From a virus: a DNA stretch of 58,368 nt. This document shows, in pieces, positions 1-53,882 of the stretch (its first letter is position 1; each line of letters begins with the position of its first letter). A program made the position numbers and the translations under genes. The stretch covers positions 1 through 58,368 of the IMG/VR virus record IMGVR_UViG_3300033512_000032; one strand, 5' to 3'. The notes under the pieces are model-generated. The model was not told the origin of the DNA. It saw only the letters and a list, made by a program, of their open reading frames with translations, and did no database searches.

Positions 1-141
1 GCAGTTCTTTACTGCGTTTCTCAGACTTCGCAATTCGTCCTTCCCATGATCTGTTACGCTGTTGTTCTTTTTCCAATAATACTTTATAATCGATCTGCCC
101 AACATTTTGCTCTACAAGAGGTTTCTCTGTTTCTACAGAAA
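1..141. repeat. Terminal overlap copy 1: identical to 58228-58368 (circular or terminally redundant assembly)
   Basis: Base-by-base comparison of the first 141 nt with the last 141 nt shows identity. A minus-strand reading frame continues in phase across the junction. Confidence 0.95.
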
Positions 142-633: not shown

Positions 634-970
634 CAACGGCCTCTTTAAAAGCACCTTCAAAGTCTTCAGAACTCTCAATAGAAAGATCAGTAATCTGAAG
701 TTCAACTCGATTCCTGGTACCTTCCTTGTTTTCTATATTCTGATCACTCGACAAACTAGTGATTAATGCTTTTGCACTAATATTGATGGCTGTATCGATT
801 TCAAGATCTTTTATCTTAAGACCTAGTTTCTTCAACTCTTCATTATTAAGAGTTAATCGTAAACCCCAAGGGTATTTTTCATAGTAGGAGTTACCAGGGA
901 TAGGCATAGCATCTACCATTTCTTTTTTACTATCTTCAGGTTTAGGTCTTTCCATACTGATTAAGTTCAT
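626..970 (-). CDS. Hypothetical head-assembly protein (114 aa) with a scaffold-like C-terminal peptide
   Basis: ORF lies between portal and scaffold, and its start overlaps the portal stop (TAATG). The C-terminus DFEGAFKEAVDE resembles the scaffold C-terminus DDFNGAFAEAVEATK. Confidence 0.6.
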   Translation of the reverse strand: MNLISMERPKPEDSKKEMVDAMPIPGNSYYEKYPWGLRLTLNNEELKKLGLKIKDLEIDTAINISAKALITSLSSDQNIENKEGTRNRVELQITDLSIESSEDFEGAFKEAVDE

Positions 971-3003
971 TATTGATTCCCCATTCTTTCGGCCATTGGT
1001 CTTCCAACACCTGCTGCTTGTTGAGTTGCCTGAGTAATAAAATCTTCTATACCACTAACTTTTTCAGCGATCATCTGCATACCGCCTTCAAGTTGTTTTA
1101 TAACTGACTCGAGTTGATTAAACCCCGCACCTTGCTGAGCTTCCTGGGCTTGGGCCATTGCTGCTTGTCGCTGTTCCATTAGTGCACTATGCTCATCTTC
1201 AGTATATACAGCTTCATCACCACCAATATCCGTTGACTCGGACCAACGTCTAAGTAGGTTGCCACGTTTAATCCATGTTACGTCTTCCGGATTAAGGGTC
1301 ATCTGTAAGAATGTCTGTATCTGTTGAGCTCGAATCTCTTTAGCCATAAGAGCAGTTGAACCACGAGCAATAATCTTCATATCTCCTTTAACATCTTGGT
1401 TCTCGTTAAATTCCATATTCCAGTTATACATTGCTGTGATAAATGGTTTAGTTATACCATCATCAAACATCTTTACTAGATCAGATAGACCGACATTCGC
1501 CTGTCCCATTAGCATCGATAAACCAGAAGCAGTTCGCCCCGCGCCACTGACCCTTGCATCACCCTGCAGGTAACGAGGAACTATTGTAACTTCATCACCT
1601 AGTCTGCTAAATAATCCGTACATGTTAAGGAATTCAGGGGTGTAGGAAGCTATTGTTTTTACACGAACAACTTCTTTTCCTGCTACATCAGCATCACGCC
1701 CTGTACGTAGCCATACTTTGAAAGCACCAATATCTGAAGGATCTTCACCATCAGCAAGAAGATCAACATTGACTTCGTACTGAGGTCCTGCACAATGGGC
1801 AGCATTATCAATCATTGCTCTAATAGAAGCATTAACTAATCGCTGCGGGTCTCTCATTATGGAAGCAATGCCCTCACCATATATAGAGGTTTCGTCCTTA
1901 TCGAAGTAATAAACATAGTAAGGAATCACTAAACCAGTAATAGGTTGGATCTCAACTTTAATTACTGTATTTCCTATAGTCCAAATATTGCAAGGAACAT
2001 CATCATCTACACCTAACGTAGCAGCCATTTCAGCAAAGCGCACCGGATCTAATTCTAATAGATCACTAAATGAAGCATACCCCCAATACTCTACAATTTC
2101 ATAGGCGCCTTTAATTGCTGGGCGAGGAGAGGTATTAGATTCTTTCAGATTATAGAGTTCATTCTCAAAGTTAGAATATTCTGCTTTACCATCTGGATTT
2201 GCTGTTATAAATTCTTTAATGAAAGTCCCATCAAAATCTTCTCTTGCTGCAAGCTGTAATAACTTATGCCGCGGCATGATGTGACGTTCACAAAAGAATC
2301 TACATAAATCTTTTTCCGTTACTGATAAATCAGGATAGATATCCCAAATCGGTTTAAATTCTGCATAAGGTCGGTTTATTTTCTTCTGAACTAGGACCCA
2401 GGACCAGGAAGCACTTTCCTGACCATTAGCGTTAATAACTCGCTTCTGCTGCATCTCCCAGTGAGGTTCTATGACCTGGTCGACCAACGGACCTTTTAAC
2501 CAACCAGTTCCATAAAGATGCCCTGAATGCATTACATCTCTGATAATGCTTCTGTACTTTATTTCAGACAACTGGTCATTTATTTCAGTTGACATACGGT
2601 TAGCAGTTTCAGTAGCAAATGTCTGAATAGCAATTGCCAGTTCACTTTTTGTAGGAGGTCTATCTTCTCCTGCTGCTTTAACTACCGCAGTAACCTGCGC
2701 AAGAAGATTTTGCTCAATAGGAGCAGGGACTGATGGAATAGGTGTTACTTGAATGTCCCAGTTCTTCTCACCATTGGCTGGGAAAAGTAGATCAAGTATA
2801 CGGGCATCAATGGTACGGACCTTTGTTCTTGTTTCACGGATAAAAGATTTGGAACGCTTAGCATCCATCTTTGCAAGAACTTCAGGGTCATAGATACCTT
2901 TATACTGACGCAAATCCTGCAGCCATATAGTTTCATATACACTGCGCTTTGCCTTTACATCAGTAAAGTTTCTATATACCATCATGCCAAGTTTACTATC
3001 CAT
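970..3003 (-). CDS. Portal protein (putative)
   Basis: 677-aa ORF directly downstream of the terminase large subunit and upstream of scaffold and capsid genes. Size and position are typical of a portal. The family was not verified. Confidence 0.7.
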   Translation of the reverse strand: MDSKLGMMVYRNFTDVKAKRSVYETIWLQDLRQYKGIYDPEVLAKMDAKRSKSFIRETRTKVRTIDARILDLLFPANGEKNWDIQVTPIPSVPAPIEQNLLAQVTAVVKAAGEDRPPTKSELAIAIQTFATETANRMSTEINDQLSEIKYRSIIRDVMHSGHLYGTGWLKGPLVDQVIEPHWEMQQKRVINANGQESASWSWVLVQKKINRPYAEFKPIWDIYPDLSVTEKDLCRFFCERHIMPRHKLLQLAAREDFDGTFIKEFITANPDGKAEYSNFENELYNLKESNTSPRPAIKGAYEIVEYWGYASFSDLLELDPVRFAEMAATLGVDDDVPCNIWTIGNTVIKVEIQPITGLVIPYYVYYFDKDETSIYGEGIASIMRDPQRLVNASIRAMIDNAAHCAGPQYEVNVDLLADGEDPSDIGAFKVWLRTGRDADVAGKEVVRVKTIASYTPEFLNMYGLFSRLGDEVTIVPRYLQGDARVSGAGRTASGLSMLMGQANVGLSDLVKMFDDGITKPFITAMYNWNMEFNENQDVKGDMKIIARGSTALMAKEIRAQQIQTFLQMTLNPEDVTWIKRGNLLRRWSESTDIGGDEAVYTEDEHSALMEQRQAAMAQAQEAQQGAGFNQLESVIKQLEGGMQMIAEKVSGIEDFITQATQQAAGVGRPMAERMGNQ

Positions 3004-12052: not shown

Positions 12053-12130
12053 CTTCGGTGTAAATAGTGCAACTTTCGTGATAAATAGATTATCTTCGAG
12101 GTGTACAAAGTTAAATTAACAGTATATAAT
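12053..12130 (+). promoter_or_regulatory. Promoter P2 (two box A copies, box B CTTCGAGGTGTACA, 17-nt spacer, TATAAT)
   Basis: CTTCG-type boxes at 12053, 12073 and 12094, about 20-21 bp apart. TGTACA at 12102..12107 and TATAAT at 12125..12130. Confidence 0.7.
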
Positions 12131-12163
12131 GTACCTAACAAAATAAAAAGAAAGGAGATTATC

Positions 12164-13156
12164 ATGGCAGATTATGTAGAATCAATGGCTTACAGGGGTG
12201 ATAAACCCTGGCACGGCATTGGTTTCCCGATCCACGAAGCAACGACACCGGCAGAAATGCTGAGATTAGCGGATTTAGATTGGTCGGTAAGTAAAAGACC
12301 TTTATACACCCCTGTTTCAAGTGAACGTGTAACTAAACCCGCGTTAATGGCGTTCAATGATCTTTCAGCATTGGTCCGAGATTCGGATAACAAGATCCTC
12401 GGTGTGTGTGGACCGCGTTATCAGCCGTTTCAGAATTCAGAGACATTTGAGTTCTTTACTAAGTTTACAGAAGCAGGGCACATGAAGATGGAAGTCGCTG
12501 GGTCATTGAAAGGAGGTTTATGGGTATGGGCACTTGCACGACTTGAAGGTCCTGCATTTCAATTAATGGAAAGTGACCCGAACTATTCTTATCTTCTTCT
12601 TGTGTCACCACATGTATGGAGTGAAGCAATGACTATTATGTTTACTTCAGTGCGTGTAGTTTGTTGGAACACTTTAACGCAAGCGTTGAATAAGAAACTT
12701 TCAGAGAAATTCAGGTTTGTGCATTCTAAGGCCTTTGTTGATGTCAAAGCATTAGCTGAACTTTCAGTCGAACAAGCGATGATTCATAAAGCAGTTTACG
12801 AACAGAAAGCAAAGATACTTTCTGAAGTAAAGATTGTTGATGTAACAAAACTTTATAAGTATGTAGCTGCTATTATGCAGCCAGATCTACTGATAGATGG
12901 TGAGGTAAAACCTACTGACTTTGGTAAACCAGCCACGCAGGTTCTATCAAATGTATATGGAGGTCCGGGGTCCAAGTTACCTTCTGCGTTGATGACGTGG
13001 TGGGGCGCATTTAACGCAGTGACTTATTTCTTTGATCATCAAATTGGTCGTAGTGGTCCTGATAAACGGCTATATGAGGCCTGGGTAAATCACAGTACAT
13101 CAGTTAAGAAGCGGAATGCTTTTGAATTAGCAGTACAATATGCACAAGCAGCGTAG
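12164..13156 (+). CDS. DUF932-like (phage/plasmid-like) protein
   Basis: ORF track starts at a GTG at 12101 inside promoter P2. I prefer the ATG at 12164 after AAAGGAGATTATC. Motifs KPWHGIG, GPRYQPFQN and RVVCWNTL resemble the DUF932 / TIGR03299 family (from memory). Confidence 0.6.
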   Translation: MADYVESMAYRGDKPWHGIGFPIHEATTPAEMLRLADLDWSVSKRPLYTPVSSERVTKPALMAFNDLSALVRDSDNKILGVCGPRYQPFQNSETFEFFTKFTEAGHMKMEVAGSLKGGLWVWALARLEGPAFQLMESDPNYSYLLLVSPHVWSEAMTIMFTSVRVVCWNTLTQALNKKLSEKFRFVHSKAFVDVKALAELSVEQAMIHKAVYEQKAKILSEVKIVDVTKLYKYVAAIMQPDLLIDGEVKPTDFGKPATQVLSNVYGGPGSKLPSALMTWWGAFNAVTYFFDHQIGRSGPDKRLYEAWVNHSTSVKKRNAFELAVQYAQAA

Positions 13157-14017: not shown

Positions 14018-14761
14018 GTGATGTGCCCAAATGATTTTGGAAAGATTGTAGATAAAACATATCTATCAGTTGACTTAGCAGAACGTAGAGGTTTTCTGCA
14101 TCGGGACTATATCGCGCATTGTTTCCGCTGGTCGCATGTTATAAAGTTTCTTAGTGAAAAGAAACGATACGAATCCGCACATATCCTTGATATAGCATGC
14201 GGAAAAGAAACACCGCTTCTTAAAACCCTGTATTCATCACGTCTTATACCACAGTCTTATTGTGGCATCGACTTCGGTCCTATTAATCCGCCAGATCCCG
14301 CACTTATGAAGAAGTTCCCCGTAACTCTTTATCCTAACTATAATATCCTCGACATTGAACCAACTAAAGGTTGGACGCAGATTGCCATGTTTGAATGTTT
14401 GGAGCACATGGAAGCTGACATGGGTCGTGAGGTCCTCAAGCATATACAAGGGTTCATGACCTCTGGACAGACAACGTTCTTTATGTCTACTCCCTGTTTT
14501 GATGGACACAAGGCTGCCAACCATGTCTACGAGAGAACGTACGAAGAACTACGCGAATTGCTACTTACGTTAGACTATAAAATAGTAAATGTCTGGGGGA
14601 CTTTCGCCTCGATTAAAGATTACGTAGATCATTTTACATCAGAGCAAAGAGAAATCTTTGATGAACTGCGAGAGTACTATGACTCGAATGTTTTGTCTGT
14701 GATCTTTGCGCCTATGTTTCCTGAATATTCACGTAATGCTTTATGGCAGTTAACAATTTAA
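14018..14761 (+). CDS. Class I SAM-dependent methyltransferase-like protein
   Basis: Motif I-like ILDIACGKE, an acidic beta-2 end YCGIDF, and IAMFECLEHM typical of small-molecule type methyltransferases. No DPPY or PC DNA-methyltransferase motifs. An ATG at 14021 is an alternative start. First gene of the nucleotide operon. Confidence 0.65.
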   Translation: MMCPNDFGKIVDKTYLSVDLAERRGFLHRDYIAHCFRWSHVIKFLSEKKRYESAHILDIACGKETPLLKTLYSSRLIPQSYCGIDFGPINPPDPALMKKFPVTLYPNYNILDIEPTKGWTQIAMFECLEHMEADMGREVLKHIQGFMTSGQTTFFMSTPCFDGHKAANHVYERTYEELRELLLTLDYKIVNVWGTFASIKDYVDHFTSEQREIFDELREYYDSNVLSVIFAPMFPEYSRNALWQLTI

Positions 14762-14762
14762 T

Positions 14763-15176
14763 ATGCTGAACTATAAACCTTTGGAGGATTTTATGATTCA
14801 CGAAGTAATAGAGTTCAATGCTAAAGTACTAGGTATTGAACAGAGGCCAATTCACCTTTTATCCGAAGATGAAAAAGATTTCTTGGAGAGAGCACTCTAT
14901 GAAGAAACGTTTGAGTTTCAAGATGCTCATACTACAAGTGATATTGTTGGTGTGGTTGATGGGTTGCTTGATCTTTGTTACTTTGCAATTGGTGGACTGT
15001 ACAGGTCTGGTCTTACCGAGTTGCAGATAGAAAAGTGCTTCACTGTAATACACCAAGCTAATATGCAAAAGCAAATTGGTATACAAAAAAAGCGTGGTGG
15101 TAAAGCAATTGATGCAGTGAAACCTGAAGGTTGGAAACCTCCGGAAGAAAAGATAAAGGAGATACTTAATCTATGA
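14763..15176 (+). CDS. MazG/HisE-like all-alpha NTP pyrophosphohydrolase
   Basis: ExxE-type motif LYEETFEFQDA and DGLLDLCYF (DxxDxxY) in a 137-aa helical protein. Confidence 0.65.
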   Translation: MLNYKPLEDFMIHEVIEFNAKVLGIEQRPIHLLSEDEKDFLERALYEETFEFQDAHTTSDIVGVVDGLLDLCYFAIGGLYRSGLTELQIEKCFTVIHQANMQKQIGIQKKRGGKAIDAVKPEGWKPPEEKIKEILNL

Positions 15177-15742
15177 ACGGTATCATAATCACCGACGGCC
15201 CTGACGCCTGCGGCAAATCAACGCTGCAGCAAGCAATTGTAGAAAAATATGGTGCAGTATCAGTCCACTTAACTTACCCTGCGCCTGAACAATATCAAAA
15301 TATGTTTGACTATCAGTTAGATGAGTTGTTAAAAGCAATTGATTTATCTGCAGAGAACTTAGTCGTTATTGACCGACACTGGATCAGTGAAATGATCTAT
15401 GCCAAGGTGTTCAGGGGTGGTAGCCCCTGGCCTCGCATGCCTTATGTCATGGATGCTTTATGTAGATTCAATGGTGTATTATATATTCTATGTATGCCTG
15501 GAACGATTGAAGCAACAGTCAAACGGCACCGTGAAAATATTGATTCTAACCACCCATACTCTGATGAGAAGTTCACTGAATTACTGCAAGAGTATAATAA
15601 TTTTTACTTGAAGACAGGGGCTGCACGGCTTGATATGTTGAGGTATACCATTGAAAGAAATGGTGATAATCTTGACCGATTTATAACGGATGCTGTAAGA
15701 CAATTGTTAAGCATCAGAAGGATGTTAGCTGCATGGAAATAA
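15173..15742 (+). CDS. Thymidylate-kinase-like dNMP kinase
   Basis: P-loop DGPDACGKST plus VIDRHWISEMIYA (the DRxxxS..Y of the TMK fold). ATGA-coupled to the MazG-like gene. Confidence 0.65.
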   Translation: MNGIIITDGPDACGKSTLQQAIVEKYGAVSVHLTYPAPEQYQNMFDYQLDELLKAIDLSAENLVVIDRHWISEMIYAKVFRGGSPWPRMPYVMDALCRFNGVLYILCMPGTIEATVKRHRENIDSNHPYSDEKFTELLQEYNNFYLKTGAARLDMLRYTIERNGDNLDRFITDAVRQLLSIRRMLAAWK

Positions 15743-16560
15743 CTGGCTATACAGCAACTGAAACATGGCTCAGTTTAATTGAGCAGATAAAGTGGTCCGG
15801 GAAGATAGTTTCTCCGCGTGGTATCCATTGTCTTGAAACTATTAATATGCATACAGTAACATGTATGCATAACCCAATTGTTACTTCAGTCGAAAGAGAT
15901 TTAGGTTACCGCTTTTTATTTGCTGAAGCGGCATGGATATTAAGTGGTGACTTTCGTGTAAAAACTATAACAGCTTATTCTAAAACAATTGCTAATTTCT
16001 CTGATGATAATGTAACGTTCTTTGGAGCGTATGGTCCAAAGATCAAAGAACAACTTGACTATGTCTGTAGTAAACTCATTGCAGATGAGGATACACGGCA
16101 AGCAGTATTAACTATATGGCGAGAGAACCCACCACAAACGAAAGATACGCCATGCACGGTAGCTGTACAGTTTATTATTCGTGATAGTAAACTACATTGT
16201 ATAGTTACAATGCGTAGTTCAGATGCATGGCTTGGTTGGCCGTATGATACGTTTAATTTCAGTATGCTTAGTTCTTTAGTAGCAATAAAGCTTAACTATA
16301 TGGCAGGTTTGAAACTAGATCTTGGCTGTATCTATATGAACCTCGGGTCGTCACATATCTACTCATCTAACTTATTAGGAGTAGAGAAATGCTTAAATAG
16401 TAAAGGTAAAACTTTAAAGGCATATCCAATGTTATATCCAATTGGTGAGTGGCAATCGCCAAATGAATTAATCCATGATCTATGGGCAATTGCTGAAAGA
16501 CGTCCTGCTGATCTTTATAGTAAATGGGGTGAGATGTTCGCCAACGAAACTTATAAGTAA
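15733..16560 (+). CDS. Thymidylate synthase superfamily enzyme, predicted deoxycytidylate C5-hydroxymethylase or methylase
   Basis: Aligns without gaps to the E. coli ThyA core: PCTVAVQF...MRSSDAWLGWPYD versus PCHAFFQF...[13 protein letters not shown]. The catalytic Cys (16153..16155) is kept. The residue 31 positions later is Asp (16246..16248) instead of Asn177. Confidence 0.75.
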   Translation: MEITGYTATETWLSLIEQIKWSGKIVSPRGIHCLETINMHTVTCMHNPIVTSVERDLGYRFLFAEAAWILSGDFRVKTITAYSKTIANFSDDNVTFFGAYGPKIKEQLDYVCSKLIADEDTRQAVLTIWRENPPQTKDTPCTVAVQFIIRDSKLHCIVTMRSSDAWLGWPYDTFNFSMLSSLVAIKLNYMAGLKLDLGCIYMNLGSSHIYSSNLLGVEKCLNSKGKTLKAYPMLYPIGEWQSPNELIHDLWAIAERRPADLYSKWGEMFANETYK

Positions 16561-16571
16561 AGGAGAGTACA

Positions 16572-17258
16572 TTGAAAGAGCAAACTGTTAAAGCAATTAA
16601 TGATATTAAACAGATGGTAGAGAATATAAGTCGTGGTGGCATTGAAGATTTAATTACATTTATTGATACTGGTTCTGACTTCTTTACTGCACCGGCTTCT
16701 ACTAGATTTCATCTTGCTTATGAAGGTGGATTAGCAGAGCATTCATGGAATGTAACTGATCTTCTTTTTAAAAAGAATGAGCAGTATGGAACTAACTATG
16801 ACTATGACACATTAGCAATTGTAGGTTTATTCCATGACCTCTGCAAAACGAATATGTATAAGTTAGTTGCTGAAGATCCTACTGATGCGCAGTTAAAGTA
16901 TCTAAGTTCTCTTTGTAAAGGCAAGGTGCCAAAAGCCCCTGGCAAATTACATAAAGCTTATGTTAGTGATCTCATCAACTTCTACGTTAAAGGTGGCAAG
17001 GAACCAGAGTACACACCTGGTAGTTATCAGATTGAGAATACTTTTCCAGTTGGCCACGGTGAGAAGTCAGTGATGCTTCTTCAAAAGTTTATTGAATTAA
17101 CTAATGAAGAAATTTATGCTATTCGTTGGCACATGTGTGCATGGGATATTAGCCCGTATGCTACTTATGACTATAATGAAGCGGTGAAGAAGTCGCGCCT
17201 TGTGACTTTAATTACAACAGCTGATATGGAAGCATCAAATATTCTGGAGGTGCTATGA
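16572..17258 (+). CDS. HD-domain phosphohydrolase
   Basis: TTG start after AAGGAGAG. Motifs RFHLAYEGGLAEHSWNV, GLFHDLCK and HGEKS. Confidence 0.7.
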   Translation: MKEQTVKAINDIKQMVENISRGGIEDLITFIDTGSDFFTAPASTRFHLAYEGGLAEHSWNVTDLLFKKNEQYGTNYDYDTLAIVGLFHDLCKTNMYKLVAEDPTDAQLKYLSSLCKGKVPKAPGKLHKAYVSDLINFYVKGGKEPEYTPGSYQIENTFPVGHGEKSVMLLQKFIELTNEEIYAIRWHMCAWDISPYATYDYNEAVKKSRLVTLITTADMEASNILEVL

Positions 17259-17512
17259 CAGACATGAAAGATGTTGAACGTAATTTGTACATAACAGGAG
17301 GGGTTCTTATTTTTCTGGCTACTATGCTTTTGATCTATGCGTTAGTAACTATTTTCCTTGGTCAGATACCAGTAGAGACTAAGTATGAACCGACTAAATA
17401 TCAACAAGAAGAAATAAAAAGGTTACATAAGAAGCATGGTGTTAGTTTATCCATTGACAACGCAGGTTACCGTTACTTTATCCGTAATGGAAAGGTTTGT
17501 GAGTTGAAATGA
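17255..17512 (+). CDS. Hypothetical single-pass membrane protein (85 aa)
   Basis: ORF that is ATGA-coupled on both sides, with the hydrophobic helix ITGGVLIFLATMLLIYALVTIFLG. Confidence 0.65.
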   Translation: MTDMKDVERNLYITGGVLIFLATMLLIYALVTIFLGQIPVETKYEPTKYQQEEIKRLHKKHGVSLSIDNAGYRYFIRNGKVCELK

Positions 17513-17952
17513 GAGTAGATGAGCACGACTATTTTATGGGTATTGCAAAGCAAGTTGCTACTAGAAGTGCTTGTGTTAGTCGGCAGGTTGGTTGTGTACT
17601 TGTAGATAAGCACAAACATATTTTAGCAACAGGGTATAATGGACCTCCAAGGGGAATTGAACATTGTCGTCAGTGCCATAGACACGAGTCTGGTCGAGAT
17701 CTTTATGAATGTAGTGCTGTCCATGCTGAAATGAATTCTTTATTGCAATGCCCAGATGTAAATAAAATAGTATCTGCTTACGTTACAATAAACCCCTGTA
17801 TGATCTGCGCAAGACTACTTGCTAACACTTCTTGCCAGACTATAGTCTTTGATGAAGTATATACCAACCAATCTTATGCTGACTTCACCAGGTTCTGGGG
17901 TCAGAGATTAGAGCGAAAAATAGTTTATCTTCGAGGTGTACTTAAGAAATAA
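17509..17952 (+). CDS. dCMP deaminase (ComEB/cytidine deaminase-like zinc enzyme)
   Basis: VHAEMN (H-A-E) and PCMICA (PCxxC) zinc-binding motifs in a 147-aa protein. Confidence 0.85.
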   Translation: MRVDEHDYFMGIAKQVATRSACVSRQVGCVLVDKHKHILATGYNGPPRGIEHCRQCHRHESGRDLYECSAVHAEMNSLLQCPDVNKIVSAYVTINPCMICARLLANTSCQTIVFDEVYTNQSYADFTRFWGQRLERKIVYLRGVLKK

Positions 17953-17995: not shown

Positions 17996-19840
17996 ATGAA
18001 TATGCTTTATCCTGATCTGAGTTCAGCTAAACTTATTTGTATCGACCTTGAAACTTATGATCCTAATTTAAAGGAAAAAGGTCCTGGGACCTTTCGCAAT
18101 GATGGTTGGATAGCTGGTATATCTATTAAACCGAATGATGGCCCATCTATATACTATTCTATTGGTCACACTGAAGGAAACCTTCCATTAAAAGTAGTTA
18201 AACAATATTGTAAAGATCAATTGAGCTCTGATATACCTAAACTCGGTGCCCGCATTTTATATGATCTTGAATGGCTGCATTGGTTAGGTGTAAAGGTCGG
18301 AGGCAAGAAGTACGATATACAAGTTGCTGAACCTTTACTCGATGAGAATCGCTTTCAGTATAACCTTGAAGATATTGCTCAGCGTCGTTTAGGTGTTGGC
18401 AAATATAAAGATACACTACTTCATGAAGCCCAAAAGATAAACCCAAAGATAAAGAAAACAAGTGACATCTTTAAGACATTATGTAAGATGCCTCCAGATA
18501 AAGTCGCAGTATATGCTTGTCAAGACACAGATCTATTAGTACCAATCTTTGAGCAACAACAAAAGGAAATGTCTGAGCAAGATCTTAATAAAGTTTTTGG
18601 AGTTGAGACAGAGTTAATTGATTTGTTACTTCAAATGCGTATTAATGGAGTAAGAGTTGATGTTGACCAAGCAGAGCAAATAAGAGAAAGGTTAATAGCA
18701 AATGAAAAAGAACTTCAAATCAACGTTGATAAGATCGCAGGACAACATGTTGACATATGGGCCGCAGAAAATATTGCAATTGCCTTTGATCGAGCAAGTA
18801 TTCCCTATCCAAAAACAGCAAAAACTAAAAAACCTTCGTTTACAGCACCGTGGCTTGAAGCACACCCTTCAGAAATAGCACAATCAATTGTGCAATTGCG
18901 TAAGATAACTAAACTGCGGAATGATTTTGTAGAGAATATGGTTCTTGGTTCTGCAATCAATGGTCGTATTCATCCGTCGTTTAATCCAGTTAAGCATGAT
19001 GAAGGTGGTACAGTATCTGGTAGGTTCTCATCTAGTAACCCTAACCTACAGCAAGTACCGTCACGAGACCCTGTCAACGGACCTCTGATCAGGGGTTTGT
19101 TCATACCTGAAGATGGTTGTCTATGGTGTAAGGGTGACTATAAACAGCAGGAGCCACGAGTAACAGTTCACTATGCTTATCTTAAAAAGTTCCTTGGTGC
19201 GGATATAGCACGGCAGAAATATATTGATAATCCAGATACTGACTACCATCAAATGGTTGCTGATATGTGTGAAATTGAAAGGCGTCCTGCGAAAGATATT
19301 AATCTTGGTCTTGCTTACGGAATGGGTGTTACTAAAATGGCCGAGAAACTAGGCAAGACAATAGAAGAAACTAAAGAGTTATATAAGAGGTACCATGCTG
19401 GTGTGCCATTTGTAAAGTTACTTGCGGATAACTGTATGCAACTTGCGACTACTCGTGGTTATATTAAAACAATTCTCGGTAGACGTAGAAGATTTGACTT
19501 ATATGGTCCACCGAAATTTAATAAAGATAAACCAATAACACCATTACCATATGATGAAGCAGTAAAAGAATTTGGTTTACCGTTGCGTAGAGCATTCACG
19601 CATAAAGCATTAAACGCTTTAATTCAAGGCACATCAGCAGATATGGTTAAGATTGCAATGGTAGATCTATATCATGCTGGCTACGTGCCACATCTTACAG
19701 TGCATGATGAAACAGACACATCAGTTGAAACTGAGAAACAGCATAATGAGATACGAGATATAATGGCCAATGCTGTTAAACTTGAAGTACCATTAGTTGT
19801 TGATATGTTTTTAGAAAAGAATTGGGGTTTATGTAAATGA
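17996..19840 (+). CDS. Family A DNA polymerase with 3'-5' exonuclease domain
   Basis: Exo I ICIDLETY and Exo III YACQDTDL. Polymerase motif A GDYKQQEPRV, motif B RRPAKDINLGLAYGMG, motif C LTVHDET. Confidence 0.92.
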   Translation: MNMLYPDLSSAKLICIDLETYDPNLKEKGPGTFRNDGWIAGISIKPNDGPSIYYSIGHTEGNLPLKVVKQYCKDQLSSDIPKLGARILYDLEWLHWLGVKVGGKKYDIQVAEPLLDENRFQYNLEDIAQRRLGVGKYKDTLLHEAQKINPKIKKTSDIFKTLCKMPPDKVAVYACQDTDLLVPIFEQQQKEMSEQDLNKVFGVETELIDLLLQMRINGVRVDVDQAEQIRERLIANEKELQINVDKIAGQHVDIWAAENIAIAFDRASIPYPKTAKTKKPSFTAPWLEAHPSEIAQSIVQLRKITKLRNDFVENMVLGSAINGRIHPSFNPVKHDEGGTVSGRFSSSNPNLQQVPSRDPVNGPLIRGLFIPEDGCLWCKGDYKQQEPRVTVHYAYLKKFLGADIARQKYIDNPDTDYHQMVADMCEIERRPAKDINLGLAYGMGVTKMAEKLGKTIEETKELYKRYHAGVPFVKLLADNCMQLATTRGYIKTILGRRRRFDLYGPPKFNKDKPITPLPYDEAVKEFGLPLRRAFTHKALNALIQGTSADMVKIAMVDLYHAGYVPHLTVHDETDTSVETEKQHNEIRDIMANAVKLEVPLVVDMFLEKNWGLCK

Positions 19841-20827: not shown

Positions 20828-20971
20828 ATGGCAGGGCATGTTGTAAAATTTTATGAAGAGAACAAGAGTAAGTTTCAGACTAAACGACAAGCATCAAAGT
20901 ACTTAAACCATTATGGTAAAGTCTGGAAAGAAGAGCATAACATTCCTATGTTGGACCCTAAACGAAAATAG
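20828..20971 (+). CDS. Hypothetical small basic protein (47 aa)
   Basis: Hand translation MAGHVVKFYEENKSKFQTKRQASKYLNHYGKVWKEEHNIPMLDPKRK. Flanked by two identical TAGAAAGGAGAATAAG cassettes. Confidence 0.6.
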   Translation: MAGHVVKFYEENKSKFQTKRQASKYLNHYGKVWKEEHNIPMLDPKRK

Positions 20972-20984
20972 AAAGGAGAATAAG

Positions 20985-21566
20985 ATGGCGTTAGATCAAT
21001 TAATGTTCGAAGAAGACTCAATGAGAACCCCCAACCTCAGTGGTTTAGATCGGCTAGGTCAGTTGGTTAATCGGCAACTTCAACTTGAAGCAGATATCAT
21101 GGAACTTGAAACGTATCTGTCTGAGAAAAATATTCAGTTGAAGAAAGTCGCTGAAGATGAGATACCTAATCTGTTTCAGGAACTTGGCATACAGGAGTTC
21201 AAACTGCAGGATGGTTCAAAGGTCACAGTCAAACCGTACTATGCTGCCAGTATAAGTGCAGATAAACAGGATGCTGCATTTACATGGCTACGTGAGAATG
21301 GCCTTGATGATGTGATTAAGCATAACATTACTGTTGCATATGGAAGGGGGGAAGGTAAAGAATGTGATAGGTTGAAAGCAGCATTAGCAGAACTCAATGT
21401 GAACTATGTTGAGAAAGCTGGCGTTCATCCGCAAACTTTAAAAGCACTCGTAAAAGAACAGATCGAAGTAATGAGTACTCGTCTTGAAGAAGGTGTTAAG
21501 TTTCCAATGGAACTTTTCAATGTCTTTATTGGGAATAAAACAACAGTCAAAAAACCTAAAAAATAG
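20985..21566 (+). CDS. Hypothetical coiled-coil protein (193 aa), recombination/replication module
   Basis: ORF track starts at 20913. I prefer the ATG at 20985, directly after TAGAAAGGAGAATAAG. Confidence 0.7.
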   Translation: MALDQLMFEEDSMRTPNLSGLDRLGQLVNRQLQLEADIMELETYLSEKNIQLKKVAEDEIPNLFQELGIQEFKLQDGSKVTVKPYYAASISADKQDAAFTWLRENGLDDVIKHNITVAYGRGEGKECDRLKAALAELNVNYVEKAGVHPQTLKALVKEQIEVMSTRLEEGVKFPMELFNVFIGNKTTVKKPKK

Positions 21567-21584
21567 AAAGGTGGAACATTATAT

Positions 21585-22388
21585 ATGAAGAAAGATGATA
21601 AGAAAGTAGAAGAAAAAGCAGTAGTTACAGTTGCACCGACGCAGGTACCTGCATTATCCAATGTTGATTTTGAAGGTGACGCCGGTGTCGGCTTTGAGAA
21701 TATGACAGCCAATGATATGGCAATTCCGTTCCTTGTAATTCTCCAGTCAGGTAGTCCTCAGTTGAAACGTGGTGAGTCAAAGATCGAAGGTGCAAGTGAA
21801 GGTGATATCTTCAACACAGTGACAGGGGATTTCTACAGTGGCCTCGAAGGTATCTTCGTTATCCCCTGTACCTATAAAAAATCCTATGTTGAATGGACAC
21901 CGCGTGATGCCGGCGGCGGTTTTGTTAGACAGCATGATGATGCTTCTATTATGAATGAAGCAAGTAAGGATGCAACAGGAAAAGACATTTTGCCGAATGG
22001 CCATGTTATTGTACCGACTGCATACCACTATGTTCTGATTACTGATCCGATTACCGGCGGTTACAATGAAGGTGTTATCAGTATGACGAGCACTCAGTTG
22101 AAGAAGTCTCGCAAATGGAACAGCATCATGAATGGTCTGAAGATGACTAAGAAAGATGGCACGAAGTTTACCCCGCCTATGTTCAGCCACATGTATAAGT
22201 TGACCACTGATCCTGAGTCAAATGAACTCGGAGCTTGGTCAGGTTGGCATGTTGATATTTACAGTCAGGTTCCTACACTTGAACTGTATAATGCCGCAAA
22301 GAAATTTGCCAAAGATGTACTCGCCGGTATTGTCAAAGAGTCATCTCCGCAAGTAACTGCAGTTGAGGATGATGGAGTTCCTTACTAG
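21585..22388 (+). CDS. Putative ssDNA-binding or annealing protein (267 aa)
   Basis: The acidic C-terminal tail ending in an aromatic residue (AVEDDGVPY) is typical of SSB-type partner-binding tails. The position in the replication module fits. The family was not recognised with certainty. Confidence 0.35.
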   Translation: MKKDDKKVEEKAVVTVAPTQVPALSNVDFEGDAGVGFENMTANDMAIPFLVILQSGSPQLKRGESKIEGASEGDIFNTVTGDFYSGLEGIFVIPCTYKKSYVEWTPRDAGGGFVRQHDDASIMNEASKDATGKDILPNGHVIVPTAYHYVLITDPITGGYNEGVISMTSTQLKKSRKWNSIMNGLKMTKKDGTKFTPPMFSHMYKLTTDPESNELGAWSGWHVDIYSQVPTLELYNAAKKFAKDVLAGIVKESSPQVTAVEDDGVPY

Positions 22389-22465: not shown

Positions 22466-22933
22466 ATGCTAATGCCTGTAGAGGAACGTTTTTGGGGTAA
22501 AGTTGATAAGTCTAAAGAGTGCTGGCTATGGTTAGGCGCAACTACTGAAGGGTATGGTCAGTTTGGTATTGGTAGAAAAAATGTACATGCTCATAGGTTT
22601 GCATATGAAGTAACATATGGTAAGATACCTGAAGGTTTATTCATACTACATAAATGTGATAATCCATCTTGTGTAAGACCAGACCATTTATTTTGTGGCA
22701 CTAACCAGGAAAATATGCAAGACGCTTATGATAAAGGTCGTGGTCCTAATCATATAGCAGTTTTGCATCGTGAAAAATATTATCCTTCACAAAAAGAATT
22801 GTGGAGACAAGAGGCCCACCCATCAGTGTCATATAAAACATTTATAAAAAGACTAAAATATCAAGGGTGGTCTTTTGAAGAAGCACTATACACTCTTTCT
22901 TATTGTGGTAATAAGTTAAGGAGGACTGTATGA
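22466..22933 (+). CDS. HNH homing endonuclease
   Basis: GYGQF...HAHRFAYE...HKCDNPSCVRPDHLFCGTNQEN matches the HNH_3-type signature. It is a free-standing gene between a terminator and the primase gene. Confidence 0.85.
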   Translation: MLMPVEERFWGKVDKSKECWLWLGATTEGYGQFGIGRKNVHAHRFAYEVTYGKIPEGLFILHKCDNPSCVRPDHLFCGTNQENMQDAYDKGRGPNHIAVLHREKYYPSQKELWRQEAHPSVSYKTFIKRLKYQGWSFEEALYTLSYCGNKLRRTV

Positions 22934-27813: not shown

Positions 27814-30800
27814 TTATTCGTTAAACATTCCCATATACATGGACTTGCTTGGTTTATATAATGCTTTTGCTTGAGTCTTTAAAGTCTGATTCGTTATAAA
27901 CGGAATCTGACCAGCTTTTTTAGACTTCATAATGGCATTATTATAGTTACTTATATCATCCATGATAGACTTCATATCTTTACTCGAACCTTTATCAATT
28001 ACATAGTCACGCCACCGCTCGAGAATCTTATCATGCTTCACTTTATAAGAAGCAATTTCACGTTTAGTTTCCCAAGTACGTTCACCCATGGTTGCTTGTT
28101 CAGCAGATCTAAAACCAACTAACCGAGCAGCAGTTTCCATAGTAGATGGTATGTAGGGTTTTCCACTATCATCCCAGACCCTCTGACCTTTTGTAGTAGT
28201 AACGCCGTTAAGTTCTCTAATTGCTCTAAAAACATTTGCAAAACCAGTAGGCAATACTTTTTCTGCTGCTCTGCCGGGTTGCCCAATCTGTAGGAAATGC
28301 ATAGCATCTTCTACATCTTTATATAGGCCGCCGCCAATACCGAATAACTCATAGAAATTCCGTGGTGTTCCTACACCAATTGACATTGACCCAGATACAT
28401 CTAAATTTGCGGCACCGAGTAAACCATGTCTCCCAATACGCTCTGGAGTTTTACCTAGTTTCTTTCTTATCCAATCCCAGAAACCTTTTTCAGGATCGTC
28501 ATCAGAACCCATGGCTTTAAACATTACTCCCACAATTCCAAATAAAAGATTCTTCATAGGAATAACTGTTGCACCACCAAGGATGACAGGGGATATTAGG
28601 CCATATAAGAAAGCTTTAATGTTTCCTTTACGTACCCCCGTATCATAGAGCATTTGTAAGTAGTTGTGAGGGAACTTTCCAAATGTGTATAGTACCTGAG
28701 ATAACCGGGCAGCAGGCCCAGTTCCCTGGCCAACGGCGAGTTGTGTAGATTTACCATATATGCCATGGGCTTTATCAGACACATCGTGAGCTTTTCTAGT
28801 AACTTCACGACTATCCATATCTGGATTATTTTCTTTTATTAACCGATATGCAGCAAGCATCGTTGTTCCACGTATCCATTGCTCTGATTTACCAAATAGA
28901 TACATTGCTGTAGCCATTGTTTTTGCCCATACTTTGCCGTGTGCTCTTTGAATAGTTCCAAGAGCATCTCTAGTATATTGAGGTGAATCATAACCACGTT
29001 GTTTTATTTCATCAATGAAGGCTTGTTCACCCTTATCATCAAGTTTCTGGCCAAGCATAACTTTACGGTAGTCATTGGAAGCAATTGAAAGAGCGCCCAT
29101 GATCTTGGTCAGAGATCCTTTGCCATCTAAACCATACTGGTGGATTGCTGTAGGAACTGTGGTCGCAAGAGATAAAATGTTCACCACAGGTGACCTTAAG
29201 TTAAACCCAAGATATTTAAATGATGCAAGACTCTTGATTAAACCAACAAGTCTATCTGCTGCATCTGAATTACGCAGTTGTTCTTCAATATATTTAGTAG
29301 CGGTGTCATAGGCCCGAGGTTCTTTTGCTGGGTCTATACCACCAATAAGCTTTTTATCTTTACCAGTACCTTCATAGTGACCAGCTAAAGTTTCAAACAT
29401 ATCTTTTGCTGCTTCACCTTTAGCAACACCTGCCGCTATATTATTAATGTACCGTACGAATCTTTCATTAGGATCTGTAATATAACCACGAATAGCATCA
29501 CCAGGTTTACGAGTAACCATTGAAGCACGGAAACCGCGAACACGGATAAGGTCTGCGACTTCTTTTAAAAGTTCTTCATTAAACTTTATTTCGAGTTCTG
29601 GATCTATACCTTCAACACGTTGCATTGCAGTTTTAATTGCTTGCTGTGTATTGATAATCCGTAATGAAGCATAAACGTCTTCAGGAAGTCTTTCACGTTC
29701 AAAGATTTCTTCGACCTTGTAACCTTTACGCTCGAGTTCTCGTTTCAATAACTCTGCTGCGAAACGATTTGATTTATGATACCGCACCACTTTATCGAAG
29801 CGCTTACCTTTAACTACATATTCTCCAGTCTCACGTAAACGAGGAGCATATGTTCCTTTCAATGAACCCATACGAGCGAGAACTGCTTTAAGATTAATAG
29901 TCTCTGGTTTTCCATCTTCATTAAGAGTTACAAACTCAGGGTATTTCGGTTTTGTATTATCTTTTTCTGCTTGCTTCTCTATGCTAGCAACTAGTTTCTT
30001 CATTGGTTCCATTAGAATATCTAGTGCTACATCATATGATCTTCTGTGCGCTTTATATAGGTTAATTACATCTTGACCAACACCTTCATTCTGGAAGTGC
30101 TGCTCCCATGTAGGTATGTTGTCTCCATAACCTTTTTTCCATTCACCAGTGTCAATCTGGTCTTTCATCTTTTCAAGTTGCTTGTATTCCTTGGACGTCT
30201 CGCCTTTGACTATTTGTGTAGTAGTTAAACCTCTATGCATTAACTTCATATTTGCTTCAATGATGTCAGAAGAATTTTCCCAGGTTCTCTGCTTCATTGT
30301 TTCAGGATTAACTTCCATTTCATTAAGCAAATTGAATAGTTCAAAGTACCGATCGTGCCTGTCAATTGCTGCACGAACAATCTTCTGCATAGTAGGATGC
30401 TTGTACCACTCAGGAGACATCAGATAACGTTCTGCCCAATGCATTGCTGGTTGGTTCTTTGGTAACTGCATTACCATTGTCTTCAGCATTGCATAAGCCT
30501 GGTCATCGAATAAATTCTTCAACTCCTGTTTCGGCGTGTCAGGGGTTATGTCCTGATAGTCTACAATGCGGAATCGGCCACGAGGTTCTTCTTTTTTAGG
30601 TACTAGTTTAAGACTAGGTTTATAATCAGAATCTATATTAAGTGAAATTCCATTCTCATTAACTGATAACTCAGGTCTAGGTCCATTTCTTAATTCATTC
30701 CATGGTACTGCACCTTCAGTCTCTAATTCATTTTCCGTTTTATACTTAGCATCTTCGACCTGATACTTAGCAATATTTTTACTTGTATCTATATCCAGTA

Positions 30801-33800
30801 AGAAAGATTTGTTTTTATTAACACTTTTAAAGTTGTCTATAGCAGTAAAAATACTATTTATTGTTTTATCAGATAAAAACATTCCCAGTTCTTCTTTAAT
30901 TGCAGAAGGTTTAAATGTGCTAAATGGTAAGGCCATTATACTAGCATTTGACTTTTGCTCTATTACACCAGTACCATCAGGTCTAAGTAAAAAGATTAAG
31001 TTATTTAGTTTTGAATCACTAAAGTCAATTTCACCGTCTTCGTCTTCGTCTTCAGGAACATAATTTAATTTGCGAATATCTTCATCATTAAGTTTGATAT
31101 AGTTATTGATAGGCGACAATGCGTAGTCGACAATACTGAATCTACCGCGAGGTTCTCTAAATTTATTTAGTGGAGAATTATATACTATCTTAGGGTTAGT
31201 TACTTTTTTAAGTTGACCAATAGAGGTAACTACTCCTGATTTTACTACTTTTGTAGTTGTATAATCAGTTACGTCATAAATAATTTCTCCACTATCTGCC
31301 TCATCAAAAGCAAATGAAATAGAATCTAATTGTTCTTGCGTTAATTTATGGTGATTGGGAATTTCTACATAGGCATTTCCATCATCAAGGTTTGTTCTAA
31401 TAAGTCCTACTTCTGTAAATAATTTTCCAAGTAAATCCCCAGTAAAACTATCAAACCCACTTACTAATTGTTTATATATGTCTGGATATTTGCTTTGAAG
31501 AACCTCAATGATCCGACTATGTGGTCCACCTAAAACAACTGCTGTTCCATCAGGTAATATTAGACCAGAATCATATGGAAAGCCATATTGTTCAGTGGGA
31601 AATGATTCTTTAATCGCGTCAATTATTTTCTGAGCATAATTGGTTTGTGTAGCAGTAAGAGTTTTTTCAGTTTTACTAAACCACGGTTGACCTTTCTCAA
31701 CTACTGACTTTGCCATTTCAGGTGTGACTGTGAAGCCGGGTTGCTTAGAAAGTTCTTTACGTTCAATAGGTTGCTTAGCGTTAAAATCTCTTAAGATTTG
31801 CTCACTATTATCTTCAATCCAATCATCAAGGTCTTCTTCGCTATTAAACTGTTTACTATATTCTATACTGCCATTTGGGTTAAGCACATTTATTGTTAAA
31901 TTATCATAGTTTGATACAATATGTGTACCTTCTTCTAAATTCCAGGCTGCTGTGCCTTCACCTAAAATAGCCTTTGGCAATGGTTTATCGAGATGCATAC
32001 TTATTGTCTCGAGTCTTGCGCCCCACTGCTTGATATATTTTTCAGTCCAGTTCTTTAACTTCTCATCATAGAATGATTCCATACCTTCACCACCAATCTC
32101 GATATCGAGATTGGTATAGTGAGCAGTATGTTGTGCAGTATTAGAATTGTCATATATTGGTTCATTACTTAACATGCTACTGGGAAATAAAAGCGATGGC
32201 AATTTTTTAATTGCTCTAACAGCAAGTTCTTTACCTACATAATCAACTAACTTTTCATATGTGTCTGCTGCTTTTTGCAGTACTTGGGTGCCATCTTTTT
32301 TAGCAGTTACACCATAAGCACCAGGTAACTTTCTAATAATCACTTCATCAACTCGTTCTGCAATAATTCCTGGGTAGCGCTCTTGCTGCTGCTTACCCGT
32401 GGTCCAAGCGACGGAGTCAAAGTTATTATCAACAGCGTAGCGAATCATCCTCTTCATGAGGACCACATGCCAGTTCTCTAGGAACGGGGCAGTAGGTATT
32501 TGCTGTGAAAGTTCTCCACCTTCTACTATACTAAAATCTTGTTGTCCTAGTAACTTCTGCCAGGAGTTAAGAGCAGTTTGTGCTGCTTCTCTAGTGTTGT
32601 AGTGGCCAACTCGTGCCTCACCATTCATTACATGGTAAACTTGCTTTGTGTTAAAACCATATTTCTTTGCGTCTTGCAACCAGTCACTCTGAATTTCTTC
32701 AATGAACAAGACTCTCCGACCTTGGTCGTCGATTCGTTCATTAAACCGTATGTGCCCTAAAACATTGGCCTCGTGCCAGTGAGAGGATTGGTATAATGTT
32801 TTAGCACGTTTAGAACTGTCATTAGTTAATACGGTGACAGCATGTTCTGCTTTGGACGGATTGTTCCAACTAGATATAACTCTATCTGTATTATCATAAA
32901 CGTACCAGTTGCCATCTTCAGCACTATACTCAACTCTATATGTAACCTTAGACTTTGGCGCTTCAGTTGGGCTCCAGATCAGAAGTAATTCCCTCTGATC
33001 TTTGCCGCCGGACAGTACCCACTGATCATGTCTTAGATTACCGGAACGGCCAGTACCATCAATATAACTATCTGGATCATCATATAGTATTTCACGATCA
33101 GATTCATAGTCATCGATAATGGCATAAACCTTGTCTAACTCACCTTCAGTTAATTTGATACCAAATGGGTCAAGTACATCTATAAATGAAGGAACAGAGA
33201 ACTTGTTTACATTATCAAAACAACTGTCATATATACTTTGAAGAAACTCATCCTCAAAAGTATCATTATTTAATGCTGCCTGTAAACCATTTTGCCCTGC
33301 ATTTTCTATAGCAATAGTAAACAACCTGCCAGTAAGTTCTATTTGTATGTCACCCAAATTATCAAGTGCAGTCTCTGTAAAATAATTGATGTTAGTGTTA
33401 CTACCAACTGTAACTGTTTGCTCACTAATCCAGTTATGCAGTTCAGTTATCATGTCATCTGTAGCATTATCACCGTCTGCTTCCCATTCATTTGAAAACT
33501 CTTGTAGGTAGGTTGTTTGTTCCGGTGTTAAAATATAATTACCAAGAAGTATTTCACTGGCTGATAATTGTGGCATAGGGATTGTGGTACCAGGAGCTTT
33601 ATCACTATGCATTACTTCTTCAACTTTAATCTGATTTGCACTTAAGAAGTTAATGAAGTCTTGCTTATTAATTTTCTCTTTCCCTTTAAGATACTGCTCA
33701 ACTCCCATCCATTTTAACTCTGCCGGTTTAACAAACTTATTCAGCCAATTGACGAGTGACTGAGGTTTAGTAGGCATATCAGTTCGAGTAGTAACAGTTT

Positions 33801-39129: not shown

Positions 39130-39183
39130 ATTTTTCCTTTCAAGAGGTTCCTCATTGCGAGACCCCAATAAATAAAGTTGCCA

Positions 39184-53265: not shown

Positions 53266-53882
53266 CTTTGTGGGCCCACTAGTTTCAGTATATATTGATT
53301 TTGTGGAGGAGGTTGCACTATATTTTCTTGTGTAACCTCACCTTTATCTAAATTTAAAGCTTGCAAGTATAATTGATATAATTGCCCTGCTCTTGCATAT
53401 TGTTTTTCTTTCAATAACCCCATAAATGTAACGAATAATACTGCAGGGGTTTTAAACTTAGTTGGTATATTTGTGATGTCTTCAGTTACCTTTGAATAAT
53501 AAACTGTAGCGATTGTTGCATTTTCAGTTACTGTGGGTACTGGGAAAAATCCGATCTTATCTGTTATATCAAAAAAATATTCAGGCGGACCAGTTGCAAC
53601 TGCAGTCTGTAATCCTTCCATTTGAGGCGTAGCTTGCTTTAAACCTTTACTACCATATATTACACCAATAAGTTTTAAATAATCAGTGGCTACTGTATAC
53701 ATCTGAGTAGTAGCAGTAAGTGTTAAAGGTGTAGAAACTTCATAACAATAAGTCTTTGTCGATATATCAACTGCCGCATCATCAACCCAACTTTCTAACT
53801 GAGTGTTCAACCAGAACCCCTCAACTATTTCATTAAGCAAAATGCGCGCCCTATCTCTTATCATTGACTTTGTCAGTCCCAT
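53262..53882 (-). CDS. Putative head-tail adaptor or tail tube protein (206 aa)
   Basis: ORF that is ATGA-coupled to the 1,069-aa gene. The call is positional. Confidence 0.45.
   Translation of the reverse strand: MGLTKSMIRDRARILLNEIVEGFWLNTQLESWVDDAAVDISTKTYCYEVSTPLTLTATTQMYTVATDYLKLIGVIYGSKGLKQATPQMEGLQTAVATGPPEYFFDITDKIGFFPVPTVTENATIATVYYSKVTEDITNIPTKFKTPAVLFVTFMGLLKEKQYARAGQLYQLYLQALNLDKGEVTQENIVQPPPQNQYILKLVGPQR

Follow-up and report, generated by a model that had tools for sequence, protein, structure and literature searches.

The open reading frame (ORF) at 15733-16560 of the virus record IMGVR_UViG_3300033512_000032 (IMG/VR), which was analysed over its full length of 58,368 nucleotides (positions 1 to 58,368; hereafter the window), codes for a thymidylate synthase (TS)-fold protein. 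In all probability, this protein is an enzyme that modifies cytosine at C5, and a function as hydroxymethylase is favoured with reasonable rather than high confidence. The explanation as a whole is considered fairly probable: a folate-dependent TS-fold enzyme, which acts on deoxycytidylate (dCMP), most likely forms 5-hydroxymethyl-dCMP (5hm-dCMP) and is part of a T4-like pre-replicative operon. The support for cytosine modification is comparative and comes from the fold, the active-site residues and their conservation, from the linkage of the genes, and from how the DNA of a cultured relative responds to restriction enzymes; the substrate, the product, the extent to which cytosine is replaced and the roles of the individual neighbouring genes are what we infer from it.

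Fold and active site of the thymidylate synthase homolog

The relevant features of the gene are the following (coordinates refer to the window, strand in parentheses):

15733..16560 (+): TS-fold enzyme of 275 amino acids, predicted deoxycytidylate 5-hydroxymethylase (5hm-dCMP synthase); PF00303, E = 6e-19
16153..16155 (+): TGC codon of Cys141, the catalytic nucleophile (C146 in E. coli), invariant in the family
16246..16248 (+): GAT codon of Asp172, at the position of E. coli Asn177; predicted switch of base specificity to cytosine (alignment and published rule)
16144..16146 (+): GAT codon of Asp138, at the position of E. coli Leu143 (alignment); an acidic residue there correlates with hydroxymethyl over methyl products
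16213..16224 (+): R161-S162-S163-D164, corresponding to E. coli R166-S167-C168-D169; Ser162 is a deoxyribo marker and Asp164 is retained

The protein matched four thymidylate synthase families of PHROG with E-values down to 4e-37, and its AlphaFold2 model (pLDDT 95.2) matched TS-fold structures. In NCBIfam, the ThyA equivalog models gave 40-52 bits versus cut-offs of 108-427 bits, and no specific model was found there for any protein of the surrounding gene cassette. A first-pass annotation, made from the letters of the sequence, had described an ungapped core alignment to E. coli ThyA, a conserved nucleophilic Cys with an R-S-x-D segment, and an Asp exactly 31 positions after this Cys in place of Asn177. 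All three observations were reproduced. In the MAFFT alignment, the core of 40 residues had no internal gaps and 15/40 identities, and the spacing between Cys141 and Asp172 was 31 residues, as between Cys146 and Asn177 of E. coli. Further ligand-binding and catalytic residues are also kept, namely R29 (R21 in E. coli), E65 (E58), Y100 (Y94), R122 (R126), and H208 and Y210 (H207 and Y209). Asp172 occurred in 120 of the 120 closest homologs from a collection of 5.8 billion proteins and in all 84 ORFs of the subfamily from IMG/VR and GenBank phages. As this residue is invariant across about 200 relatives, it is neither a one-off nor a sequencing error. Asp138 and Asp164 were likewise invariant in the family.

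Position 177 (E. coli numbering, used for all positions given without residue of the window protein) sets the base, with Asn leading to dUMP and Asp to dCMP; this rule rests on mutagenesis of the TS of E. coli and L. casei. Reportedly, the sources cited for the effect of Asn177 to Asp are Liu & Santi 1992, Hardy & Nalivaika 1992 and Graves 1992.

In the MetaGPA virome experiment, position 177 together with position 147 was the top discriminator of contigs with modified cytosine from unmodified contigs; the dCMP preference which the first-pass annotation had derived from the Asp agrees with the mutagenesis rule and with this result. A further position, 143, has been related to the product, with bulky hydrophobic residues accompanying methyl products and Asp or Glu accompanying hydroxymethyl products, as in T4 gp42 and in MilA, the CMP hydroxymethylase of mildiomycin biosynthesis (PDB 5JNH, 5B6D). 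The exchange D169N is the mark of flavin-dependent 5-hydroxy-dCMP synthases, e.g. RB69 gp48. In MilA, Ala at 167 and Lys at 126 lead to a preference for ribonucleotides, whereas the deoxy enzymes have Ser and Arg.

Reference enzymes were translated from genome records and aligned with the window protein, and the signature was read at positions 143/147/165/169/177. PaMx74 and AXL1, a close relative of Xp12, served as references for 5-methylcytosine (5mC) and stood in for Xp12 itself; MilA was compared via PDB alignments only, outside the multiple alignment. The signatures were:

E. coli ThyA: L/H/Q/D/N
SPO1 gp29, SP10, Det7 and M6-like Churro (phages with 5-hydroxymethyldeoxyuridine): D/N/N/D/N
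T2 gp42: D/T/M/D/D
RB69 gp48: E/T/M/N/D
PaMx74 and AXL1 (Xp12-like 5mC phages): N/P/L/D/D
Window protein, Manatee Spring phage MW202621, AXL3 gp28, PW916 and Pelagibacter phage HTVC119P: D/T/M/D/D

By this code, the window protein would be a deoxycytidylate hydroxymethylase. Asp at position 177 is common to T-even gp42, RB69 gp48, the Xp12-like enzymes and MilA, so that its natural occurrence in T4-type dCMP hydroxymethylases, as previously noted, was seen directly in the aligned gp42. With T-even gp42 (EC 2.1.2.8; PDB 1B49) the window protein shares the TS fold, the nucleophilic Cys, all five diagnostic residues and the Ser and Arg markers for deoxyribose. At the two sites where MilA has Ala/Lys, the residues Ser162 and Arg122 of the window protein correspond to the deoxyribo-specific state and indicate a deoxyribonucleotide as substrate. 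In comparison to canonical ThyA (EC 2.1.1.45), the PF00303 fold and the catalytic Cys are shared, but Asn177, Leu143, His147, Gln165 and Trp80 are missing. The dUMP hydroxymethylases of the SPO1 gp29 type have Asp143 in common with the window protein, which differs from them by Asp177 and by T/M instead of N/N at 147/165. The earlier proposal had left the product open between 5hm-dCMP and 5-methyl-dCMP (5m-dCMP); the modification of cytosine is supported by the residues and the gene context, and the choice is narrowed insofar as hydroxymethyl is favoured over methyl.

Sequence comparisons with characterised enzymes gave a similar picture for the phage proteins. By BLAST, every one of the nearest was a hydroxymethylase (SP10 and SPO1, 87 bits; Churro, 74 bits; Det7, ViI-like, 69 bits), and the Xp12-type methylases of PaMx74 and AXL1 reached 53-54 bits. 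The latter were closest to E. coli ThyA (96-105 bits), which is expected because such enzymes keep the reductive chemistry. The lowest score among the references was obtained with RB69 gp48 (42 bits). The closest solved relative by sequence was MilA (E = 2e-18 versus 4e-8 for T4 dCMP hydroxymethylase and about 1e-9 for TS), and it was also the best match of the AlphaFold2 model in the fold comparison (TM 0.82; TS and T4 dCMP hydroxymethylase about 0.67).

In the proposed mechanism, Cys141 would attack C6 of the pyrimidine, and Asp172 would form hydrogen bonds to N3 and to the N4 amino group and in this way select cytosine. The methylene group of 5,10-methylene-tetrahydrofolate would then move to C5. 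The resulting exocyclic methylene intermediate would be hydrated and not reduced, which would be favoured by the acidic Asp138 at the mouth of the active site.

The operon and the linked methyltransferase-like gene

The TS homolog is located in the following tightly packed gene cluster:

14018..14761 (+): class I S-adenosylmethionine (SAM)-dependent methyltransferase-like protein (Methyltransf_23 type); Pfam match weak in the window protein, clear in homologs
14763..15176 (+): MazG/PRA-PH-type nucleoside triphosphate (NTP) pyrophosphohydrolase, putative dCTP pyrophosphatase; PF01503 and PHROG pyrophosphohydrolase families
15173..15742 (+): thymidylate-kinase-like deoxynucleoside monophosphate (dNMP) kinase, predicted to phosphorylate modified dCMP; PHROG 761, E = 1.6e-14
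16572..17258 (+): HD-domain metal-dependent phosphohydrolase; PF01966, PHROG 28876
between the HD protein and the deaminase (+): ORF of 85 amino acids, placed by operon order
17509..17952 (+): cytidine deaminase of the dCMP/dCTP family; PF00383, E = 4.5e-17; PHROG 174, E = 1.3e-37
17996..19840 (+): family A DNA polymerase (PolA), last gene of the operon; PHROG 17, E = 5e-109

From the methyltransferase-like gene through PolA, the junctions are +1, -4, -10, +11, -4, -4 and +43 nucleotides; the kinase gene overlaps the start of the TS homolog by 10 nucleotides, and the operon of the TS homolog would be translationally coupled. The cassette functionally parallels gp56, gp1, gp42 and cd of T4, where gp42 is accompanied by enzymes of the same kinds, namely dCTP pyrophosphatase, dNMP kinase and dCMP deaminase. 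It differs from the T-even system by the MazG/PRA-PH pyrophosphatase, the family A polymerase and the linked SAM-methyltransferase-like gene, and no glucosyltransferases were found in the window. In the putative pathway, the MazG-like pyrophosphatase would hydrolyse dCTP to dCMP and keep normal cytosine out of the DNA. The kinase would phosphorylate the modified nucleotide, the deaminase would feed the thymidylate branch, and the phage PolA would incorporate the modified dCTP. The virion DNA would then contain 5-hydroxymethylcytosine (5hmC), or a derivative formed by the linked methyltransferase-like protein, in place of most or all cytosines and would be protected against restriction.

This arrangement corresponds to published findings on viromes. 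TS(D177) with deaminase, PRA-PH and PolA is the reported neighbourhood of virome contigs that survive modified-cytosine selection; PRA-PH is a typical neighbour in modified-cytosine contigs, and the linkage of deaminase and TS(D177) is a published marker of modified-cytosine phages. In the window, TS(D177) lies less than 3 kb from a gene of the dCMP deaminase family, with PRA-PH and PolA nearby, as in a MetaGPA-type module. For the TS homologs of the MetaGPA studies (Yang et al. 2021; mSCD preprint 2024), the predictive rule (positions 177 and 147) is the same and so are the neighbours deaminase, PRA-PH and PolA, but a linked class I methyltransferase-like gene was not reported in those studies.

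A search with the alignment of the TS family gave 80 IMG/VR loci (L013-L092), in which the conservation of the gene order was analysed. The kinase was directly upstream of the TS homolog in 72 of the 80 loci and the deaminase directly downstream in 60; PolA was present in 58 loci, in about 50 of them directly after the deaminase, and a MazG-like gene was detectable in 36. The HD protein was found only in the closest relative (L013) and is therefore a lineage-specific insert between TS homolog and deaminase. The pyrophosphatase of the window shares 39-41% identity with its counterpart next to the TS homolog in the 5mC phages AXL1 and PaMx74, which would fit a common role in dCTP removal. A variant module (L056 6806-9698; also L050, L052, L069, L073, L074 and L085) consists of PolA, a NUDIX hydrolase, kinase, TS(D177) and methyltransferase, without MazG-like gene and without deaminase; the NUDIX protein in it seems to be a non-orthologous substitute for the NTP pyrophosphatase. 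Upstream of the TS homolog, at a distance of about 3.3-4.6 kb, a DUF932 / PHROG 1221 protein is encoded (12101-13156, +). Its gene occurred at the same position in 24/80 of these loci and in 42/80 loci of the scan from the methyltransferase side described below.

The methyltransferase-like gene was present in 60 of the 80 loci found with the TS family. In the reciprocal scan, starting from the methyltransferase (80 loci, L095-L174), a TS homolog was located within 6 kb in 70 cases, and 9 of the 10 exceptions were contigs ending less than 1.7 kb past the gene. Even in the variant NUDIX module, which lacks the deaminase and has another type of pyrophosphatase, the methyltransferase abuts the TS. 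Among 50,697 GenBank phage records, the gene was detected only in four phages with the full cassette, i.e. AXL3, PW916 and two Manatee Spring genomes, and it was not found in the examined regions of PaMx74, AXL1, RB69 and HTVC119P.

The product of 14018-14761 is classified as a class I SAM methyltransferase (Methyltransf_23) on the basis of its family. The family profile matched UbiG, Hen1 and PKMT2, and the predicted fold gave CmoM as best match and otherwise generic class I methyltransferases; a PDB search with the single sequence yielded no match. No motifs of DNA methyltransferases were seen in the protein. Many Arg and His residues are invariant in the family, and motif I reads DIACG in the window protein and its two closest relatives, compared to DxGCG in the family.

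Since this gene is almost always linked to the TS subfamily, the base finally present in the DNA could be derived from 5hmC. In this case, 5hm-dCMP or 5hmC would be only an intermediate, and the methyltransferase-like protein would form a methylated derivative so far undescribed in DNA, e.g. 5-methoxymethylcytosine or an N-methylated 5hmC, as the true base of the AXL3-type phages and of hundreds of environmental phages. The absence of the gene from phages with 5mC, from those with 5-hydroxycytosine (5hoC) and from T-even phages is part of the case for such a base, which is nevertheless regarded as a doubtful, if conceivable, extension. In the literature that was searched, neither a 5-methoxymethyl base nor a methylated 5hmC derivative was found to be reported from phage DNA, no paper describing a methyltransferase-TS module was found, and the MetaGPA papers make no mention of a linked methyltransferase.

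Cultured relatives and alternative functions

Only two cultured phages, Stenotrophomonas phage AXL3 and Pseudoxanthomonas phage PW916, combine a TS homolog of this subfamily with the full cassette. Their TS homologs are 46-49% identical to the window protein (AXL3 gp28, 49%) and have the same active-site signature. The order of methyltransferase, NTP pyrophosphatase, kinase, TS and deaminase is shared with this Axeltriavirus-type cassette; the differences are that AXL3 and PW916 are siphoviruses of hosts with high GC content and lack the HD protein, and that AXL3 carries ThyX besides the TS homolog. A CtrA-phage paper mentioning a TS homolog was also considered and set aside, as it concerns ThyX. 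According to its authors, AXL3 DNA was cut by 2 of the 37 restriction enzymes having sites in the genome, namely TasI and Tru1I, both with A/T-only sites. They concluded that the G/C bases are altered, read gp28 as an ordinary TS and drew no connection between the two. The same laboratory obtained partial digestion of the DNA of AXL1, an Xp12-like phage, with KpnI and Eam1105I, whereas both enzymes failed on AXL3. This hints that the modification of AXL3 is not simple 5mC.

In GenBank, the TS homolog of PW916 (L007 3280-4098) is named 'deoxyuridylate hydroxymethyltransferase' and AXL3 gp28 (L003 6001-6810) 'thymidylate synthase'. Because both proteins have Asp at the position of Asn177, these names are probably wrong with regard to the base. 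Proteins named 'thymidylate synthase' with the signature D/T/M/D/D were also observed in Pelagibacter phage HTVC119P (L008 5923-6771; 51% identity) and in HTVC200P. In the examined region of HTVC119P, no deaminase or kinase was annotated and no methyltransferase-like gene was detected by tblastn. By their active-site residues, these abundant SAR11 podophages may have modified cytosine as well.

Among the alternatives to a dCMP hydroxymethylase, a dCMP methylase of the Xp12 kind fits the data best, yet it is considered unlikely. Such an enzyme would employ reductive chemistry to form 5m-dCMP, 5mC would replace cytosine, and the deaminase would turn part of the 5-methyl-dCTP pool to dTTP. Asp177 is shared with the Xp12/PaMx74-type enzymes, beside which a homologous MazG-like pyrophosphatase (about 40% identical to the Pamexvirus counterpart) and a deaminase are likewise encoded. 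The neighbourhood of TS(D177), deaminase, PRA-PH and PolA is typical of phages with such methylases, and of the seven deaminase-linked TS(D177) homologs tested in the one functional survey, five formed 5m-dCMP. The window contains no other thymidylate synthase, which the route via 5-methyl-dCTP and deaminase could explain. However, the window protein has D/T/M where the Xp12-like enzymes have N/P/L at 143/147/165, and Asp143 is common to every known hydroxymethylase. The similarity to these overall ThyA-like enzymes is restricted to the 53-54 bits given above. In all 5mC Pamexviruses, dihydrofolate reductase (DHFR) is encoded beside the TS homolog, where it is needed by the dihydrofolate-producing methylase, but no DHFR was found in the window genome; a hydroxymethylase releases tetrahydrofolate and therefore needs none. 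Furthermore, AXL3 DNA resists the two enzymes that partly cut AXL1 DNA, the Xp12/PaMx74-type modules have no methyltransferase-like gene, and a SAM methyltransferase would be without obvious role in the module if the base were already methylated.

An activity on dUMP is very improbable, be it that of an ordinary thymidylate synthase, as in the JGI and AXL3 annotations, or that of a dUMP hydroxymethylase, as in the PW916 annotation; the DNA would in this case have normal cytosine. Beside the database names, the adjacent dCMP deaminase, which would supply dUMP, and the top BLAST scores to the dUMP hydroxymethylases of SPO1 and SP10 speak for this function. Against it stand the Asp for Asn177 in every member of the subfamily, while all compared dUMP enzymes combine Asn177 with N/H at position 147 and N/Q at position 165, and the scores far below the ThyA equivalog cut-offs. 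In AXL3, a second dTMP synthase would be redundant, as this phage carries ThyX, and its DNA is resistant at sites containing G/C and cut at A/T-only sites.

A flavin-dependent 5-hydroxy-dCMP synthase of the RB69 gp48 or DLP3 gp80 kind, with 5hoC as sugar acceptor, is even less probable. Such enzymes are widespread in viruses, and RB69 gp48 agrees with the window protein in Asp177, Thr147 and Met165 and in having an acidic residue at 143. This product class is excluded for the window protein by the retention of Asp164 (D169), which is invariant in the family in place of the diagnostic D169N; RB69 gp48 was moreover the least similar reference, and neither glycosyltransferase nor nucleoside diphosphate (NDP)-sugar genes were found in the complete genome. 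Equally remote is a MilA-like CMP hydroxymethylase that acts on ribonucleotides for a purpose other than DNA modification, as MilA, the closest solved relative by sequence and fold, shares Asp at positions 177 and 143, Thr147 and Met165 but differs by Ala176 and Lys133' (Ser162 and Arg122 in the window protein), and as the gene is located between those of dNMP kinase, deaminase and DNA polymerase in a phage replication operon.

The interpretation as dCMP hydroxymethylase also has to be weighed against several observations that do not agree well with it. In the alignment, Gln takes the position of Arg127, in which the protein differs from T-even gp42, and Trp80 has no counterpart. The identity to gp42 is only about 25% (52 bits), and the window protein is no closer to gp42 than to ThyA; it therefore belongs to a separate lineage with a matching active-site signature. 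The rule for position 143 was called a correlation by its own authors. The high proportion of methylases in the functional survey has to be added, since the surveyed neighbourhood (TS, deaminase, PRA-PH, PolA) resembles that of the window and some of the tested enzymes may belong to the same TS subfamily. The restriction data of AXL3 speak for altered G/C pairs, not for the identity of the base, and the genome yielded neither a glycosyltransferase nor any other enzyme known to tailor 5hmC.

The phage genome and implications

An exact direct repeat of 141 bp is present at both ends of the window (1-141 and 58228-58368), from which it follows that the genome is complete, circularly assembled and about 58.2 kb in size. 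The sequence stems from a JGI metagenome. Its GC content is 39%, and no near-identical DNA match was found among the GenBank phages. Genes for replication and nucleotide metabolism are grouped in a plus-strand block, and those for terminase, major head protein, tail proteins and the SU10-like portal and adaptor occupy the half on the minus strand. Additional features are:

970-3003 (-), 53262-53882 (-), 20913-22388 (+), 22466-22933 (+): SU10-like portal and adaptor; Pam3 gp33/gp34-like proteins; HNH endonuclease
27814-39168 (-): single ORF of 3784 amino acids

The SU10-like portal and adaptor suggest an SU10-type podovirus. The Pam3 gp33/gp34-like proteins and the HNH endonuclease are encoded within the replication block. 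The ORF of 3784 amino acids occupies about 19% of the genome where the minus-strand structural block starts and had no match in Pfam or PHROG; it might be a giant virion or ejection protein. Among the other ORFs of the window, neither a second thymidylate synthase nor ThyX, DHFR or a glycosyltransferase was detected with Pfam and PHROGs in a scan that covered mainly ORFs of at least 100 amino acids.

The first-pass annotation had overrated the novelty, as the literature already describes this switch and has applied it to the prediction of modified phage DNA. N177D is well published as a mark of modified cytosine (T4 gp42, Xp12, MetaGPA 2021 and the follow-ups of 2024 and 2026), and the gene described here belongs to a separate branch of this known strategy. 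If the proposed function is correct, a complete phage genome of 58 kb replaces cytosine with a C5-modified base. This would affect restriction, CRISPR targeting, cloning, bisulfite or enzymatic methyl-sequencing and nanopore basecalling of the phage DNA. It would also correct the widespread mislabelling as 'thymidylate synthase' or 'dUMP hydroxymethylase', including that in the therapeutic-candidate phages AXL3 and PW916 and in the Pelagibacter podophages. The residue signature would provide a cheap rule to separate 5hmC-, 5mC- and 5hoC-type phages in metagenomes. Finally, the linked methyltransferase-like gene provides a concrete lead, open to experimental test, towards a DNA modification that may be new, for which AXL3 and PW916 are available in culture.

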